A DNA stretch of 64,000 nt from Candidatus Marinacidobacterales bacterium (GTDB taxonomy: Bacteria > Acidobacteriota > Vicinamibacteria > Marinacidobacterales > SMYC01): the NCBI GenBank assembly GCA_965237955.1, contig OZ250169.1, positions 960,001-1,024,000 on the forward strand, in the 5' to 3' direction. Each line of letters begins with the position of its first letter. Positions within the stretch are counted from its first letter, which is position 1. The notes under the pieces are model-generated. The model did not search any database. It had not been told where the DNA came from and was given only the letters and a program-made list of their open reading frames with translations. The translations under genes and the position numbers were made by a program. Positions 23,579-60,369 of the stretch are shown one piece after another.

Positions 23579-23675
23579 CACCGAACGTTCGCTCTTGTGC
23601 TCGATAAAGTCCAGTCTAATGAGGGGCTTCCGGGTGCGCAGTCCGCTGCCCGCAGCTCGCCCCGCAGCCCAAGGG

Positions 23676-24090
23676 TCGGCGGATTCCAAGGGCGTCTAAG
23701 CTGCTGATTTGTGGTCTATTTCAAGAGGGCCGAGTTTTGGCACAGGACGCGGTTCTCCTCTTGCTGGTAGTCGATCACATCCTGCTGCTGGCGGTTGACC
23801 CAGCCAGCTAGAACGAGCAGTAGGAATTGCGCGTGGTACGTCATCATGGATCTGAAGATAACACCCTCGGGCCAGACGATTGTAAAGCCTACGGCCCTTG
23901 GCCCGGTCGCAAACACAGACACTAAGCTGCTGATTTATGGTCTATTTCAAAAGGGCCGAGTTTTGGCACAGGACGGGGTCGGAAGCCAGCCCTGCGGCGC
24001 GAAATACCCTCGATTCTGCGCGGATTCCAAGGGCGTCTAAGCTGCTGATTTGTGGTCTATTTCAAAAGGGTCGAGTTTTGGCACAGGACG
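23676..24090 (+). repeat. Head-to-tail stack of three ACG-type element ends (ending 23749, 23975, 24090) enclosing a 5' scrap of the rve transposase
   Basis: ctaagctgctgattt(a/g)tggtctatttcaa(a/g)aggg(c/t)cgagttttggcacaggacg occurs three times in the same orientation. Confidence 0.92.
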
Positions 24091-40155: not shown

Positions 40156-40266
40156 CGTCCTGTGCCAAAACTCGGCCCTTTTGAAATAGACCACAAATCA
40201 GCAGCTTAGACGCCCTTGGAATCCGCGCAGAATCGAGGGTATTTCGCGCCGCAGGGCTGGCTTCCG
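40156..40266 (-). repeat. Sibling ACG end (inverse copy of 23980..24090)
   Basis: Outer ~54 bp match the TIR; the inner part matches 23980..24036. Confidence 0.9.
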
Positions 40267-41704
40267 CGTCCTGTGCCAAAACTCGGCCTTTTTTGAAATA
40301 GGCCATAAATCAGCAACTTAGTGTCTGTGTTTACGACCGGGCCAAGGGCCGTGGGCTTTACAATCGTCTTGGGCGGGCGGGTCGTCACCATGCAGATGAC
40401 CACCTAGTCGAGAGCGAATATCGAAGCGTGTTCCTGAAGCGGTTTCCACGCTACGCCGGTCGAGCCCGCCGAGGGGCTACCGTCGCCGGCGACCATCTAC
40501 GCGGCACGGCAGTAGTAGTTGAGAATGCCCCCAAGTCGCTCTCGCGACACGATGGGGCCAGCGTCATTCGCGCTTGCCGGCAGAGGTGTGAGGAGCTCGT
40601 TGCCGAGACCTTGGTGGTTCCGTTCTGTGTGATAGTGCACTACGTATTCGGTTACCGCTGTGCGCAGGTGTCGCTCACTGAGAGGTACGAAGCGGTCGAG
40701 ACACTCTCGACGTATGGAGAGAACGAATCTTTCCGCATATGCGTTCAGATTCGGACTATTAGCGGGAAGGCGAAGGGGCTTCACGCCTGAATCTCTCAAC
40801 AGCCCACGTACCGCCTCGGTGAATAGCGGGTCCCGGTCGTGGATGAGGTATCGCTTGCCAAGGAGGAAACCATCCCACATGTCAGTGAGGTTTCTTGCCA
40901 CCTGCTTCATCCACTCCCCGTTGGGGTCCGACGTTATCCAGGGCAGTACACCGATGCACACGCAGCGAGTGGCGATATCGATGACAAACAGGACATGGTA
41001 GCGGACGAGCCCGAACGGGTTCACAACCTCGACGATGAACAGGTCTGTCGCAGCGATGGCGCCCCAATGAGCCTTGATGAAGGTGCTCCACGACATGCTC
41101 CTGCCCCGCTCCGGCGCAGGAGCGATACCGTGCTCGGCGAGGAGCCTCTTGATAGTGTTGCGTCCGAGTTCATGTCCTAGGTTCTTGAGTGCGCCTCGCA
41201 GGCGCGTATATCCCCACGTCGGGTTCTCCCGCGCCACGCGCACAATGAGCTCACGGATGTCCTTCGCCGTCGGAGGTCGGCCTGGACTCCGGTTCTTGCT
41301 GCCATCGTACTTGGCTGCGATGAGGTGGCGGTACCAGCGCAGAAGCGTAGCGGGTGTGGCAACGGACGCAATCTGGGCCAGCGCCTCGCGGCCCAAAGCC
41401 TGGGCCTTGACGGCGAGCCTGCGCCGCTCGTCGTCCGAGAGACTGAGACGCTTGCCCCGAAGCCCGGCTCGGAGCACACGGTTCTCCTCTTGCTGGTAGT
41501 CGATCACATCCTGCTGCTGGCGGTTGACCCAGCCAGCTAGAACGAGCAGTAGGAATTGCACGTGGTACGTCATCATGGAGCTGAAGATAACACCCTCGGG
41601 CTAGACGATTGTAAAGCCTACGGCCCTTGGCCCCGGCGCAAACACAGACACTAAGCTGCTGATTTATGGCCTATTTCAAAAGGGCCGAGTTTTGGCACAG
41701 GACG
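40267..41704 (-). mobile_element. Full-length long-TIR integrase-core element, copy A
   Basis: ~102-bp TIRs CGTCCTGTGCCAAAACTC...; single transposase; no TSD. Confidence 0.9.
40497..41576 (-). CDS. Integrase-core (rve/DDE) transposase
   Basis: 359 aa. [12 protein letters not shown] region, [28 protein letters not shown]. 9-nt insertion relative to the sister copies. Confidence 0.9.
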
Positions 41705-42118
41705 GGGTACGATGCGCTAGATGCGCAGAGGAAAGCAGGCCTGAATAAGATCGGCAAATTCGATAGGGATTTGGGTCGCTTCGTTATCCATCGGCTTGAG
41801 GGCGACGTGCTGCGGCATGAAGACTGGGGCCACATAGCGATTCTGGACAACAGCGCCATCGTCGTCGACGGACGCACTCTGCCTGGCGAGGCCAGAAGCC
41901 CGAACGCGGCCACGTTCGGGTGGGCCAAAAAACGATACGTTGAAAAAGAGATGCAGAGGTTCAAAGACAACATTTACAAGCAGCCGGACATGTCGTCTCA
42001 GGAGCGCGCGACCGCCGTTCAAGAGTTCAGGAGAACGATCGAACAGACGTTCGATGGATTCAGCCGCGCTCGGAAATACGAGATAATGATGCGAGAGGCA
42101 TACGGACTGGAGGAGTGA
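41705..42118 (+). pseudogene. C-terminal fragment of an unknown protein
   Basis: Open frame begins exactly at the element end; its stop overlaps the next start (GTGATG). Confidence 0.5.
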
Positions 42119-43020
42119 TGGCTGAACCGTACGGCCAGGATCTTGTGGAGCGGGCCTATTTGTCACGGCTCCATGCGATGCTGGTGAACTCCGGATATCG
42201 AGGACAGTTCGCCGGCGTGGAGCCGGTCGACCGGCTGTTCGCGCTTTTGAGACGCTCGGACAGAGGGACGAAACTCGCCGACCAGTTTGTGTCCGTTTTC
42301 GGAGACGGCGGCAAACGGACCAGCGTGGCGACGATCAGAATCGCGGACGAGCGCGCGTACCAGGCGTGGGGGTTGCCAAACGTCTGGCCGACACGCCATA
42401 CTGCCGTCATGGCACTTCCAAAACGCCTAATCAAGGACATCAAGGAAAATCGCGAGGAGTGGAGAGCGCGCCGGTTCGAGCGCTTTCTCCAGCCGATTGA
42501 CGCGATCGTGCCGGTGGACCAAAACCACCCAAGTCCTGCTGACATCAACGCGGCAGCCCTGCGGATCGCAGCACAGGTGGACGCTCGGCACAAGAAAGGG
42601 GTCCATCAGATGGCGAAGCGTAAGACGCCACAAAAGACGGACAAGAAGTACGACCGCTTCGTCATGGACGTGCGGGAAATCGGCGACCCTGCGACTTCTC
42701 CTAGCCAGGCCGAGATCAACGCAAGCGTTGAGATCAATCTACGGAAGCAGGCGCTGGCGATCTTCGCCAAGGCCGAGAAGGCCAAGACGAAGGGCCGAAA
42801 GCTGACAGCCGACGACAAGCAGACGTACGATCACTTCGCCAAGCAGTACCCGCACCTCGTTACTGAGCGCCGTGCGGAGTTCCAGAAGCAGTTAGAGCGA
42901 TTCATCCAGCCGGCCGAAGGCATCCGGCCCAACGGGGTGGGGCCGTCGCCGGCAGAGGTGGACGAGGCGGCGCGCCGAGCGCTGGAGAATTACAAGCGCA
43001 GTGGCAAAAAGAGTTCGTAA
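42118..43020 (+). CDS. Hypothetical protein with three degenerate internal repeats
   Basis: ~300-aa ORF with RBS GGAGG; basic and helical; no family recognised. Confidence 0.6.
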   Translation: MAEPYGQDLVERAYLSRLHAMLVNSGYRGQFAGVEPVDRLFALLRRSDRGTKLADQFVSVFGDGGKRTSVATIRIADERAYQAWGLPNVWPTRHTAVMALPKRLIKDIKENREEWRARRFERFLQPIDAIVPVDQNHPSPADINAAALRIAAQVDARHKKGVHQMAKRKTPQKTDKKYDRFVMDVREIGDPATSPSQAEINASVEINLRKQALAIFAKAEKAKTKGRKLTADDKQTYDHFAKQYPHLVTERRAEFQKQLERFIQPAEGIRPNGVGPSPAEVDEAARRALENYKRSGKKSS

Positions 43021-43542
43021 GTCGGACGACGACCGACGACCGACGGCAGAGGAGCAGAGACTACTGGAGCGGCTGACCGACTGGACGGCCGACACCGTCA
43101 TAATCGCGAAGGCGTCCTGTGCCAAAACTGCGTATTCCAGCCATCGTGAACGCCGAATCCAGAGCAAGCTGAACAGCGAATCCGGTGAAGCCGAACGCTC
43201 ATCGAAGCGATGAAGTGTTGGGTGACCTCCTTTCCACTGATTGAAAACGTGAACCTATCTTACCTGCGTGTTGTGTAGCAAGGGGCGGCAGGTCGGTGCC
43301 GGAGGGAGCGGGCGTAAGGAAAGACGCGAAGCGACCTTCCCGCTCCCGTAGGCAGCGACCTGCCGCGGCCGAACCCCGGGCGATGTGGGGCTGGTTTCGG
43401 GGGGTTGCTGGGGTATGGCCTGGCTCGAGAAGACGCTTCCTGAGGCATTCTCGCGCGTCGTTTTGGCGCCGCATCGTCTGGTACCCCGGGTTTGGCGGTT
43501 TCACCCGTTTTTATCGCATCGACGCTGTGGTCCCTCGCTCGC

Positions 43543-44301
43543 TCATGCATCGGCGTTGTCAAATGCCTTTGGCGCAGCCTTGGTCTTTCTCAGAGAAGCT
43601 CCTTTGAGAGTGATGCGGTGCGCGCTGTGGAGAATGCGATCGCAGATAGCGTCTGCCTGGTTTGGGTCGCCAATCGCTTCGTGCCACTGCTTGAGCGGAA
43701 TCTGGGTCGCGATGAGTGTGGAGCCACGCTCGGCGCGGTCTTCGATGACCTCCATTAGATCCCGTCTCTCCGATTCTTTCAGCGGGTGAAGCAGCCAATC
43801 ATCGATAGCCAGTAAGTCCAGCTTGGCGAGTTTCGTCAAAAGCCGGGCGTAGGAACCATCACCACGAGCGACCGCGAGCTCGTGGAGCAAGCGCGGTGCT
43901 CGCACGTAGCATCCGGTGAAGCCGCGACGACAGGCCCGCTCCACGAAGGCGCAAGCCAAGAACGATTTGCCAATCCCCGTCGGGCCGGTGATGAGCAGGT
44001 TATGGCGCTCACCGACAAAGCGGCAGTTGCCCAGGCTCAAGATCTGTTCGCGGTTTAAGCCTCGAGGCGCTTGGAAGTTCACGTTCTCCAAACATGCCGG
44101 ATAGCGGAGCTTTGCCGCTCGCAGTCGTCGAGAAAGCTTACGCTGTTCGCGGGCGGTCCACTCGGCATCGACCAGGAGTCCCACACGTTCCTCGAAGCTC
44201 AGCTCCTTGTATTCGCTCGAGCTCAACTGGGTTTCGAACGCGGACACCAAGCCGAACAACTTCATGGCGTTCATCTTTTCTATCGTTTCGGGTGTCAGCA
44301 T
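43543..44301 (-). CDS. istB: IS21 helper ATPase
   Basis: GPTGIGKS Walker A, LLAIDDW, DAICDRILHSAHRITLKGASLR. Confidence 0.93.
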   Translation of the reverse strand: MLTPETIEKMNAMKLFGLVSAFETQLSSSEYKELSFEERVGLLVDAEWTAREQRKLSRRLRAAKLRYPACLENVNFQAPRGLNREQILSLGNCRFVGERHNLLITGPTGIGKSFLACAFVERACRRGFTGCYVRAPRLLHELAVARGDGSYARLLTKLAKLDLLAIDDWLLHPLKESERRDLMEVIEDRAERGSTLIATQIPLKQWHEAIGDPNQADAICDRILHSAHRITLKGASLRKTKAAPKAFDNADA

Positions 44302-45667
44302 CGGGACTCTCCTCCTTCGTAGTGATCCGCGCCTCGGATGTTCTCGTGCTCCTCTCGCGGTTTCGCTTCGGCGTCCGATTCGAGCACCACACGATCCAGA
44401 CCAGCCGAGAGAATGTTTTTCACCGTGCGATAGCTGTAAGAGCTCAAAGCTTCCGCTCGTGCGCAAGCGGCCTCGAGACGCTCACTGCCCCAGCGGCTGC
44501 CTAGTCGCATGACTCCCAGGCAAGAGCGAAATCCCTGCTCCGGGTGAGGCCGACTCTCTAGAATCCCCGCAACCAGCCTTCCCGTGGCGCGACCTGACTG
44601 CTCCGCCCAGTGGAGCAGCCGCGACGGCGTCCACTCCAGGTGCTCCCGATGCGAACGTGGCATATGCTCCGGGTTCGTGGAGTAGTGCCCCTTTCCTTTC
44701 TTGCGGGGATGCGACGCGACGCGCTTTCCCTTGAACAGGACCTCCACCACCGAGGCCGTCACCCGTGCCTCGACTTTCTCGTGAATGAGCTGATAGGGAA
44801 CGCTGTACAAGTTGTTCTCCACCTCCACGTGGTAGTCGATGTTCACTCTGCACCGCTTCCACGTCGATAACTCGTAGCTCTCCTGCGGTAGCGGTTTCAG
44901 TACGGGCCGGTCTAGCCTTTCGTACAACTCCCGCCGACTCACACCGAGCTTCTGCATCGGACGCGCATTCAGGACCTCTAACTTCTCCCAGATGGCTTCG
45001 TTCAGTTCCGCCAGGCTGAAGAACGTGCGATGACGAAGCACCGCCAGGATCCAGCGCTGCGCCACCTGCACTGCCGACTCCACCTTCGCTTTGTCTTTCG
45101 GCTTGAACACCCGAGCCGGGACCACAACCGCACCGTAATGCGTCGCCATCTCTTCGTACGTCCGGTTGATCCCTGGCTCGTAACGGTCCACCAAATCCAC
45201 GCCGCTCTTCAAGTTGTCCGGAACCCAGATCTCCGTACTGCCACCGAAGTAATCCGACATCCCCTTATGGGCCTTCGCCCACGATTCCAGCGACTGGTTC
45301 AGTGTCGCTTCGACGTAGGTGTAACTGCTCGCGCCCAACGTCCCGACGAACAGCTCCATTTCGACGAGCTCTCCCGTTTTCGGATCGCCGATGTGAGGCT
45401 TCTTCCCCGAAAAATAGACGAATGTCTTCTCGCCTGCTCGATGCCGTTGACGCATCGTCGGGTTCAGCTTCTTCTTCCACTGACCGTACAGCTCGCAATA
45501 ACGGCTGTAGCCGTACGCTCCCGGCTTATTCTCCGCGTACTCCACCCACAGCTGCAGCAACGTCAGCTCTCGGTGACGCCTCAGCTCCTCGTGGATGTGG
45601 GCATAGTCCAGACCCGGCCGTGCGCCAGACGAGCCCGGCGGCGGAAACAGCCCTGCCTCCAGCTCCC
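44295..45667 (-). pseudogene. istA: IS21 transposase lacking its N-terminal HTH
   Basis: MRQRHRAGEK, VPDNLKSGV, KPKDKAKVESAV, YSVPY. FVYFSG in place of the usual FVDYSG suggests a lost catalytic Asp. Confidence 0.9.
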
Positions 45668-47097
45668 CGTCCTGTGCCAAAACTCAGCCCTTTTGAAATA
45701 GCCTATAAATCAACAGCTTAGCGTCTGTGTTTGCGACCGTGCCAAGGGCTGTAGGCTCTACAATCGTCTTGGGTGGACGGGTCGTCACCATGCAGACGAC
45801 CACCTGGTCGAGAGCGAATATCCAAGCGTGTTCCTGAAGCTGTGTTTCCACGCTACGCCGGTCGAGTCCATCGAGGGGCTACCGTCCCGACCACAATCTA
45901 GGCGGCACGGCAGTAGTAGTTGAGAATGCCTCCAAGTCGCTCTCGCGACACGATGGGGCCAACGTCCTTCGCGCTTGCCGGCAGAGGTATGATGAGCTCG
46001 TTGTCGATGCCTTGGTGGTTCCGTTCGGTGTGATAGTGCACGACGTATTCGGTTACCGCTGTCCGCAGGTGTCCCTCACTGAGAGGTACGAAGCGGTCGA
46101 GACATTCTCGACGTATGGAGAGAACGAATCTTTCCGCGTAGGCGTTCAGATTCGGACTATTAGCGGGAAGTCGGAGGGGCTTCACGCCTGAACCTCTCAA
46201 CAGCCCACGTGCCTCTTCGGTGAATAGCGGGTCCCGGTCGTGGATGAGGTACCGCTTGCCAAGGAGGAAACCATCCCACATGTCAGTGAGGTTTCTTGCT
46301 ACCTGCTTCATCCACTCTCCGTTGGGGTCCGAAGTTATCCCACCGATGCACACGCAGCGAGTGACGATATCGATGACAAACAGGACATGGTAGCGGACGA
46401 GCCCGAACGGGTTCACCACTTCGACGGTGAACAGGTCTGTCGCGGCGATAGCGCCCCCATGAACCTTGATGAAGGTGCTCCACGACATGCTCTTGCCCCT
46501 CTCCGGGGCAGGCGCGATATCGTGCTCGGCGAGGACCCTCTTGATGGTGTTGCGTCCGAGTTCATATCCGAGGTTCTTAAGTGCGCCCTGCAGGCGCGTA
46601 TATCCCCACGTCGGGTTCTCCCGCGCCATGCGTACCATGAGCTCACGGATGTCCTTCGCCGTGGGAGGTCGGCCTGGGCTCCGGTTCTTACTGCCATCGT
46701 ACTTGGCTGCGATGAGGCAGCGATACCAGCGCAGCAGCGTAGAGGGTGTGGCAACGGAGGCAATCTGGGCTAGCACATCACGGCCCAAGGCCTGGGCCTT
46801 GACGGCGAGCCTACGCCGGTCTTCGTCAGAGAGCCTGAGACGCTTGCCCCGAAGCCCGGCTCGGAGCACACGGTTCTCCTCTCGCAGGTAATCAATCACA
46901 TCCTGCTGCTGGCGGTTGACCCAGCCAGCCACAACGAGCAGTAAGAACCGCACGTGGTACGTCATCATGGAGCTGAAGATAACACCCTCGGTCCAGACGA
47001 TTGTAGAGCCTACAGCCCTTGGCCCGGTCGCAAAACACAGACGCTAAGCTGTTGATTTATAGGCTATTTCAAAAGGGCCTAGTTTTGGCACAGGACG
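45668..47097 (-). mobile_element. Full-length long-TIR integrase-core element, copy B
   Basis: TIRs at 45668..45769 and 46995..47097; no TSD. Confidence 0.92.
45898..46968 (-). CDS. Integrase-core (rve/DDE) transposase, apparently intact
   Basis: 356 aa; [30 protein letters not shown]. Confidence 0.92.
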
Positions 47098-47220
47098 GGG
47101 AACCCGAATCGCCGACATCGCCTCCGACACGCCCCAGAACTGGGGCTCGCCACAAGTCGATGACGATCGAAACGGCCCGGCGCGCCAGTCTTGAGTTCGT
47201 TTGTGTTTTTGGACAGGACG
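47098..47220 (+). repeat. ACG end of a third subfamily (paralogue of 51381..51502)
   Basis: cgaatcgccgacatcgcctccgac...tcttgagttcgtttgtgtttttggaca(gg/ca)acg is shared. Confidence 0.85.
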
Positions 47221-47570
47221 CGCAAGCACCAGGCTTGTGCCTTCTATCTATTCATCCGCGCGCACCGAACTTGATTAGTCTCCGGTCTGCCGGCACCATG
47301 ACGAGCTCGCTAATCTCGGCCATGACCCGGGTGTGATCCGCAAAAAAGAAGATCGCGTATCGACGGCCAGACAACCATGAGAGCGATGTCCTGCGAACTC
47401 GTCTTCACCTCGGTGGAGCTTCTGCACGCTTTCGCCGTCGGTTCATCGACGCAATAACGTTCTGGGAAAAGAACGCGTTGGTCGCCACGAGAACCTAGCT
47501 CCGTCAGGCGACGCGTGCCAACCGCGTGAGGTCAAAATACTCATGCGGCTTCCCGTTTGAAGCCGATATC

Positions 47571-48822: not shown

Positions 48823-49280
48823 AAGCTCACGGATGTCCTTCGCCGTCGGAGGTCGGCCTGGGCTCCGGTTCTTGCTGCCATCGTACTTGGCTGCGATGAG
48901 GTGGCGGTACCAGCGCAGAAGCGTAGCGGGTGTGGCAACGGACGCAATCTGGGCCAGCGCCTCGCGGCCCAAAGCCTGGGCCTTGACCGCGAGCCTGCGC
49001 CGGTCGTCGTCCGCGAGACTGAGACGCTTGCCCCGAAGCCCGGCTCGGAGCACACGGTTCTCCTCTTGCAGGTAGTCGATCACATCCTGCTGCTGGCGGT
49101 TGGCCCAGCCAGCTAGAACGAGCAGTAGGAATTGCACGTGGTACGTCATCATGGATCTGAAGATAACACCCTCGGGCCAGACGATTGTAAAGCCTACGGC
49201 CCTTGGCCCGGTCGCAAACACAGACACTAAGCTGCTGATTTATGGCCTATTTCAAAAGGGCCGAGTTTTGGCACAGGACG
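48823..49280 (-). mobile_element. 5' fragment plus one TIR of the long-TIR rve element
   Basis: [15 protein letters not shown]...KDIREL, then a full TIR ending at 49280. Confidence 0.9.
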
Positions 49281-51134: not shown

Positions 51135-51502
51135 CCTGTGCCTTCTATTTATTCATCCGCGCGCACCGAACTTGATTAGTCTCCGGTCTGCCGGGACCAT
51201 GCTGGCATGATTTCGTCGTTTGTTCGCGCTCTCGTCTCTAGAGGACCTAGAATCAAGGCCGGGGCTACCGCGGCGCAGCGGGCTAGCACGTTCTGGTCCA
51301 GGTGCAGCCCGGGCCTGGACCCAGGTTTCCGCTCGGGAGCGTGGCATCCCCTTGCTGGACGGTATTTTCCCTGCGCGTACGGAGAACTCGAATCGCCGAC
51401 ATCGCCTCCGACCCCCAGATCTTGAGCTCGCCACGGGTTGATGACGATCGAAACGGCCCCGGCGCGCCGATCTTGAGTTCGTTTGTGTTTTTGGACACAA
51501 CG
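51135..51502 (+). mobile_element. ~370-bp non-coding repeat element; parts recur at 47236, 57920 and 60190
   Basis: tgtgccttctatttattcatccgcgc...ccgaacttgat occurs 3 times, gctagcacgttctggtccaggtg-like twice; ends in an ACG end. Confidence 0.65.
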
Positions 51503-60127: not shown

Positions 60128-60285
60128 GCTGTGCTCCGCAAAAAGTCGATCCGGCGTTGATTGCGCGGTTTAGACCTGCCATGATCGGCTTGTGCCTTTC
60201 TATTTATTCATCCGCGCACCCCGAACTTGATCGGTCTCCGGTCTGTCGGGACCATGCCTGCATGATTTCGTCTTTTGTTCGCGCT

Positions 60286-60369
60286 CAGCCCTTGGCACGT
60301 CCGCAAACACAAGCACTAAGCTACTGATTTATGATCTATTTCAAAAAGGCCGAGTTTTGGCACAGGACG
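60286..60369 (+). repeat. Solo degenerate long-TIR end
   Basis: gcccttggc...gcaaacacaagcactaagctactgatttatgatctatttcaaaaaggccgagttttggcacaggacg. Confidence 0.88.

Follow-up and report, generated by a model that had tools for sequence, protein, structure and literature searches.

Insertion sequences (IS) with a DDE transposase are expected to insert both of their ends together and to leave a short duplication of the target. According to the accessible parts of PMC10045372, IS481 elements duplicate 2-15 bp, mostly 6 bp, and a loosened spacing of the two strand transfers gives discrete duplications of about 5, 15 or 25 bp in the IS1202 group and IS481EU. Attack by one end followed by Holliday-junction processing is described for IS911 in the available text of PMC7986276, where the shared IS26/IS911 model moves one end to the flank of another end before a Holliday junction forms, and where the targeted conservative model for IS26 exchanges flanks with no new duplication and also includes branch migration through the IS. 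In the available part of bioRxiv 10.1101/2024.11.13.623437, the one-ended telomeric TnsBC transposons of Streptomyces and cyanobacteria are DDE systems with one transposon end and a telomere as the other. Here we analyzed an integrase-core element with long terminal inverted repeats (TIRs), present as two full copies, A and B, in a 64,000-nucleotide stretch of a Candidatus Marinacidobacterales bacterium (the window; GCA_965237955.1, contig OZ250169.1, positions 960,001 to 1,024,000). Our data favor, at a probability of roughly 0.55, a single-gene DDE IS whose copies are free of target duplications, whose ends are joined singly at polar sites and whose TIR is a one-off copy of the 5' end that has rarely been re-homogenised.

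Genome G000 (8.13 Mb, a single contig) contains 515 end motifs and 22 copies that have both ends, A and B among them, and the element was present in 15 of the 41 genomes of the family and order searched, its full copies being 91-95% identical. Arms were aligned from 62 copies of 10 genomes and later from 77 copies. Comparison with empty alleles placed the junction exactly before CGTCC (|CGTCC), 80 of 192 at offset zero, and the small positive offsets came from targets whose start resembles the end. From 167 strict empty targets the site read (G)A(C/T)CC^NGT (A in 108 at -4, C in 145 at -2 and 128 at -1, G in 108 at +2, T in 104 at +3). Left, right and solo ends all met this site from the same side, that is, it is polar. 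Flanks of the 77 full copies, compared to 180 bp, matched over 0, 1, 2 and 3 bp in 62, 10, 3 and 2 copies, respectively, against 60, 12, 4 and 1 for shuffled flanks. No target duplication longer than 3 bp was present in any of the 77 full copies or of 68 mini-elements (among them 15 copies of a 317-bp form), and BLAST of long flanks detected no long direct duplication in the 77 copies, 73 of which had flanks of at least 1 kb. Duplications are likely missing because each end was joined to new DNA separately.

If both ends insert as a pair, each junction should have a partner at the opposite end. Partners predicted for duplications of -6 to 12 bp fitted the logo in 1-29% of cases, compared to 90% for real junctions; the downstream halves of the 167 targets showed no modal offset to 270 bp, and the other half was not found at another end. 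With IS21 of the same genome as a control, 27 of 41 empty targets yielded a partner junction, offset by 5-8 bp, and a duplication was retained in 17 of 34 IS21 copies and in 10 of 25 copies of an IS3-type element. The main rival explanation, which we consider unlikely, is that insertion was of the normal two-end kind with a short duplication, and that adjacent deletions and recombination between copies later replaced both flanks. Both processes are documented causes of missing duplications in the accessible text of PMC11708052, the genome with its 515 ends holds many fragments, and half of the IS21 copies have no duplication either. Such erosion would have to have removed both flanks in all 77 full copies, 68 mini-elements and the 16 Streptomyces copies described below. 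It also leaves the one-sided logo unexplained, T or A standing at -2 in 5 of 515 ends, and two-end chemistry gives partner junctions, as in IS21, that are missing here.

Three other placements of the junction were rejected. Neither TGT ends that take CGTCC for their target nor a duplication of 2 bp (CG) agree with junctions that fall at |CGT whatever the next base of the target. A 1-bp duplication in AC-NNN-GT would require T or A at -2 of the partner junctions, the bases found in those same 5 ends. Long duplications of the IS1202 type (5-6, 15-17 or 24-29 bp in that group) were found neither to 180 bp nor when long flanks were compared by BLAST. Inherited flanks would be homologous to that of the donor; no sign of this was seen in the end clusters, which were inspected by eye only.

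Empty alleles for both flanks were available for 25 of 62 copies and were contiguous in none. Most of these 25 testable copies had flanks from unrelated sequences; in a few copies the flanks lay 473-1150 bp apart within one target, and one copy (L038) is the centre of an 899-bp inverted duplication. These last cases would suit the transfer of both ends in one complex, each end capturing its own polar site at a variable distance, so that one event would yield an insertion together with a deletion, an inversion or a long duplication, and the loosened spacing of IS481 and IS1202 relatives, with duplications of about 4-6, 15 or 25 bp in the available parts of PMC10045372, points the same way. We regard this as rather improbable, given the unrelated flanks and the fact that solo ends far outnumber full copies; sequence data alone cannot tell one-complex transfer from two sequential events.

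Relatives of the element gave a similar picture. A sister element with a 20-bp inverted repeat (IR) had a duplication in 0 of 7 copies. One Streptomyces plasmid contained 36 matches, of which 14 loci were examined; the ends of 12 were set by rule, one end wrongly, and all 12 had flank matches of at most 2 bp. Four copies on other Streptomyces plasmids were all without duplication, and seven metagenome relatives showed matches of at most 3 bp. For four Streptomyces copies, no non-source record with both flanks together occurred among the best 15 matches of each. The one exact Streptomyces empty allele, GAATCC^ACC, continued differently from the other flank of the copy. Protein clusters of the group run into thousands: at least 7992 of 8000 scored candidates reached E <= 1e-20, a number that may include neighbouring families. 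In a Streptomyces strain (L135 and L213), one end of a homologue was joined inside a helicase gene of the kind found near the ends of linear plasmids, which here lies internally on the larger plasmid.

The first-pass annotation had drawn attention to TIRs of about 102 bp in A and B and to six differences between the copies that both arms of each copy share. Both observations are real: the inverted arms measure 102-103 bp, and the shared differences lie at arm positions 35, 37, 46, 55, 83 and 91. The annotation omitted that arms within a copy are not identical, 7 alignment columns differing in A and 4 in B. A and B represent two lineages, with coding regions 92.8% identical. As to its question whether arms group by side or by copy, they clustered by side: A49 occurred in 61 left against 3 right arms and G86 in 58 against 9, among 77 copies, and side-specific markers persisted across about 10 genomes. 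In the 62-copy set, every arm was at least as close to some arm of the same side as it was to its partner. For permutation, the short-IR sibling L112 was left out, leaving 76 long-TIR copies, and the B lineage was set by motif. Identical arms were found in none of these 76 copies, and 1 of 113 instances of rare variants (in at most 3 copies) was present in both arms. The mean distance to the own partner was 5.30 compared to 5.89 for permuted arms (0 of 5000 permutations), showing co-variation above chance; removal of the five B-lineage copies gave 5.45 compared to 5.40 (71 copies, p 0.86), that is, no co-variation. The overall co-variation stems from this five-copy lineage.

Side clustering, the lack of identical arms and the single shared rare variant rule out end copying at each transposition, and the panhandle or strand-displacement replication that had been proposed for it is unsupported, as arms are not re-made identical in each cycle. 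What speaks for copying at every hop is that B-lineage arms share five states in three genomes, that T37 stands in both arms of B and that a mini-element, discussed below, has identical arms. With co-variation confined to the B lineage, we give routine copying almost no credence; copying of one end from the other does hold as a rare event.

The long TIR is likely the product of one past inverted copying of the 5' end, because the relatives and L112 hold the segment at their 5' end only. In six relatives (79-88% protein identity) the segment aligned to the 5' end over 54-102 bp, and the 3' ends of seven relatives shared only 19-30 bp; in two of the loci (L125 and L164) both ends were visible in one element. 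L112 is a full-length sibling with 95.6% identity in the coding sequence and the old 3' end, six relics of which are kept in G000. Of 80 loci, the long arm was present in 60 and the old end in 3, while 5 had a different junction and 12 lacked an anchor; the new arm took the place of a segment of similar length (anchor at 116 compared to 110-111). The copied end carries a putative site resembling that of integration host factor (IHF) and a putative TACAAT hexamer, both named for their likeness to consensus sequences (IHF and -10). A promoter scan, run on the two ends of B only, found nothing.

Since that origin the arms have likely been re-homogenised only rarely. B differs from its twin at G000:1110991 at 3 of 1430 bases: position 37, its mirror 1394, and 1413. 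Conversion likely ran from right to left, given that right arms commonly carry C35/G37-type states, which occur in left arms almost only within the B lineage; its tract was patchy, because the arms of B still differ at 18, 19, 62 and 73. The mini-element at G000:603478-603921 is a fold-back whose arms agree without a mismatch for 62 bp or more and share a variant that, among the 515 ends, occurs in these 2 alone, and at 711272-711810 of the same genome two left ends match over about 134 bp with one mismatch.

Could the arms agree without any copying, from the site needs of transposase or IHF alone? A46 does fall in the IHF-like motif. We hold this to be very improbable, as the relatives and L112 share only 19-30 bp between their ends, mini-elements with an end of 19-31 bp reach many copies (15 for the 317-bp form), and near identity over 102 bp goes beyond selection at single points; further, B and its twin have identical transposase regions, yet position 37 changed in both arms. 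Homogenisation by the assembler or polisher is hardly credible. The genome is an assembly, the sequencing runs are contigs that cannot phase the arms, and T37 in both arms of B rests on one assembly. Against an artefact, the arms differ in every copy, B-type paired arms recur in two further genomes (G018 and G033), and T37 is present in other right arms too.

Non-autonomous mini-elements with unequal ends are repeated in G000, in forms of 317 bp (ends of 159 and 31 bp; 15 copies), 134 bp (89 and 20; 5 copies), 392-395 bp (78 and 62; 6), 345 bp (54 and 20; 3) and 329 bp (84 and 19; 3). One end of each repeated form was always at least 54 bp long, i.e. held the IHF-like site. Interiors of full copies are mosaic, the copy at 3682737 combining B-type arms with a mainly A-type coding region, and copies therefore recombine freely. 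In G008 (L022, C4:1932050-1933890) a full copy, in inverted orientation, has taken the place of about 1150 bp inside another copy, and elements with two like ends could arise in this way. Between 4.75 and 7.25 Mb of G000 there were 0 of 512 ends of the element, compared to 12 of 50 IS21 ends and 12 of 76 IS3-type ends. The region of 1.25-2.0 Mb was without all nine IS end motifs counted, those of IS21 and the IS3-type element included.

How might ends be joined singly? Under DDE chemistry, the joined strand would run from GGACG-3' to 5'-GGGT. An end would thus use its 3'-OH to attack the strand 5'-ACN^GGGT at the bond that is cut at a real end, and the target site would be a short look-alike of the end-plus-flank junction. 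Attack would give a one-strand branched intermediate, to be resolved by host replication or Holliday-junction processing. One event could delete, invert or fuse DNA; two events at two sites would make a new copy with the intervening DNA deleted or inverted, and repeated events would eat outward and leave solo ends behind. Occasional template switches or recombination among the approximately 500 arms would produce fold-back ends, at the origin of the long TIR and of mini-elements, and by the same means the patchy right-to-left conversion of the B lineage and T37. Solo ends, nested ends and the restriction to islands are all in keeping with such a single-end model.

Several observations weigh against this model. 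In addition to half of the IS21 copies, 60% of the IS3-type copies are without duplication, and the islands are heavily rearranged. The reciprocal product of flank exchange was not in excess (148 targets); deletion circles would be lost, and the missing enrichment may reflect replicative resolution or loss of circles, or may count against the model. A fresh insertion was nowhere caught in a direct before-and-after pair. The target's likeness to the end stops at +3, which makes the idea of an end mimic weak. The Streptomyces flank logo is weaker, if of the same C-rich polarity (C 11, G 8, A 4 and T 1 of 24 at -2), and an exact empty allele came from only 1 of 4 Streptomyces junctions tried. Arms identical over 50 bp occurred in only 2 of 24 mini-element pairs, and pairs had a mean of 2.8 mismatches compared to 3.8 for random pairs. 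Finally, the evidence comes from sequence, and the predicted template modelling score (pTM) of the structure model is 0.53.

Table 1. The element, its ends and its neighbours in the window (positions counted from the first letter of the stretch; ORF, open reading frame).
Feature	Position	Strand	Length
Tandem array of three nested ends (tips at 23749, 23975 and 24090)	23668..24090	-	
Solo 54-bp end of the same element with foreign inner DNA	40156..40266	+	
Copy A, full-length element, main lineage	40267..41704	-	1438 bp
A, left arm, at the 3' end of the gene; likely derived inverted copy of the 5' end	40267..40369	+	
A, transposase ORF, helix-turn-helix and rve_3	40497..41576	-	359 aa
A, right arm, native 5' end; putative IHF-like site 41652-41664 and TACAAT hexamer 41608-41613	41603..41704	-	
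Relic end adjoining an IS21 end	43113..43128	+	16 bp
IS21-family element (istA, istB), interrupted at the left end of B, target CTCCC^CGTCGC	43129..45667	-	
Copy B, full-length element, B lineage	45668..47097	-	1430 bp
B, left arm, right-arm-type states C35, T37, A46, C55, T83 and C91; putative IHF-like site 45708-45720	45668..45769	+	
B, transposase ORF	45898..46968	-	356 aa
B, right arm, native 5' end; putative IHF-like site 47045-47057 and TACAAT 47000-47005	46995..47097	-	
End fragment of the sister element (CGTCCTGTCC end, family member at about 55% amino-acid identity), right flank of B	47098..47220	-	123 bp
One-ended fragment of the 5' end	48824..49280	-	457 bp

The features of the window are listed in Table 1. 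The left end of A was joined into the neighbouring solo end as its target (TCCG^ACC). B's left end cuts an IS21, of whose 2943 bp about 400 bp are gone, and its right end cuts the sister element; the two flanks are unrelated and there is no duplication. Among the three nested ends, the middle one was joined into target DNA of its first neighbour. The commonest solo end (a cluster of 81 ends in G000) combines 54 bp of TIR with an adjoining foreign sequence common to its copies, and occurs in the window at 40156-40266, 23668-23749 and 23980-24090. Between two outward-facing ends lie 1.4 kb (41705-43112), with a 150-aa ORF at 41666-42118, starting inside the arm of A, and a 301-aa ORF at 42115-43020, both without a Pfam or NCBIfam match. 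Two other IS ends, TGTGCCTTCT (107 hits) and TGTGCTCCGC (80 hits), are confined to islands, and A or T hardly ever stands at their -2 position, for which reason their elements may be further polar members; ends of this type lie at 47240-47330, 51143-51231 and 60198-60286 of the window, and also in G000.

The transposase is a single ORF with helix-turn-helix (HTH) and rve_3 domains. Its best NCBIfam match, the IS481 model NF033577 (E 1e-23; 84.3 and 95.1 bits), missed the cut-off of 224, and the IS3 model NF033516 reached 73-78 bits against a cut-off of 160. In 77 homologues D178 and D244 were invariant and E279 at least 90% conserved, and by their spacing these residues may form a DD35E triad. 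A structure model with a predicted local distance difference test score (pLDDT) of 78 showed an RNase H-like fold, with IstA, retroviral integrase and TnsB as its nearest matches, and a long N-terminal helix ahead of the HTH; single-sequence folding was poor (pLDDT 43), and sequence searches of PDB with the transposase gave nothing useful. The only annotation of plasmid homologues at 34-39% is 'integrase core domain-containing protein'. By the features examined, the element appears to fall outside IS481, IS3 and IS1202, in an unclassified IS3/IS481-related group. Literature searches, which did not extend to ISfinder, TnCentral or most subscription papers, turned up neither an account of this group nor one of TIR conversion in an IS. 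For an acidobacterium, the available text of PMC3469429 lists 37 'integrase catalytic region' genes with family NA.

With IS481 the element shares a single ORF, an rve-type DDE transposase and NGT tips, the Streptomyces members ending in TGT, TGC or CGT. It differs in the low model score, in the long helix before the HTH, in junctions at 5'-CGT instead of the 5'-TGT...ACA-3' ends of IS481, and in having no duplication. The IS1202 group and IS481EU are of the same broad clade, and differ in their discrete duplications, none being found here to 180 bp. IS3 has a related DDE domain, whereas this element has one ORF instead of orfA and orfB with a programmed -1 frameshift, no 3-5-bp duplication, and no abutted ends in the genome, where the nearest back-to-back pair is 27 bases apart; abutted ends were also absent among 15 of 33 joints listed from contigs, which are weak data. 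In IS911 targeted transfer the target is a real IR, whereas here it is a 7-8-bp site in any DNA. As with IS26 and IS911, the joining of one end to a flank left no new duplication here. IS26 belongs to another family (IS6), needs a second IS copy with an identical end and gives 8-bp repeats by its ordinary route, whereas the present element uses short degenerate sites and no ordinary route was seen. The telomeric transposons encode TnsC and telomere proteins, whereas this element has two ends and one gene. Its mechanism would likely resemble the targeted single-end side reactions of IS26 and IS911, used as the main route; transfer of that type would call for an active DDE transposase and for RecG/Ruv, but not for RecA.

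The lack of target duplication is a stronger finding than the co-variation of the TIRs. Tentatively, and at less than even odds, the whole, very large group, from marine Acidobacteria to Streptomyces, may have given up paired strand transfer, its DDE enzyme working like a relaxed, polar site-specific recombinase that joins single ends to A(C/T)CC^NGT, which would fuse and delete accessory DNA without scars and whose one-strand intermediates would also yield fold-back ends, new TIRs and mini-elements. Cultured Streptomyces members make the single-end model testable. The short-IR ancestor survives in this lineage beside its long-TIR descendant, and the birth of a long TIR is rarely recorded in this way. 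If the model is true, the transfer of single ends, which has until now been a side route in IS26 and IS911, would become a main way of moving, and would explain both the 'integrase core domain' annotation without a family and the pile-up of ends in accessory islands.

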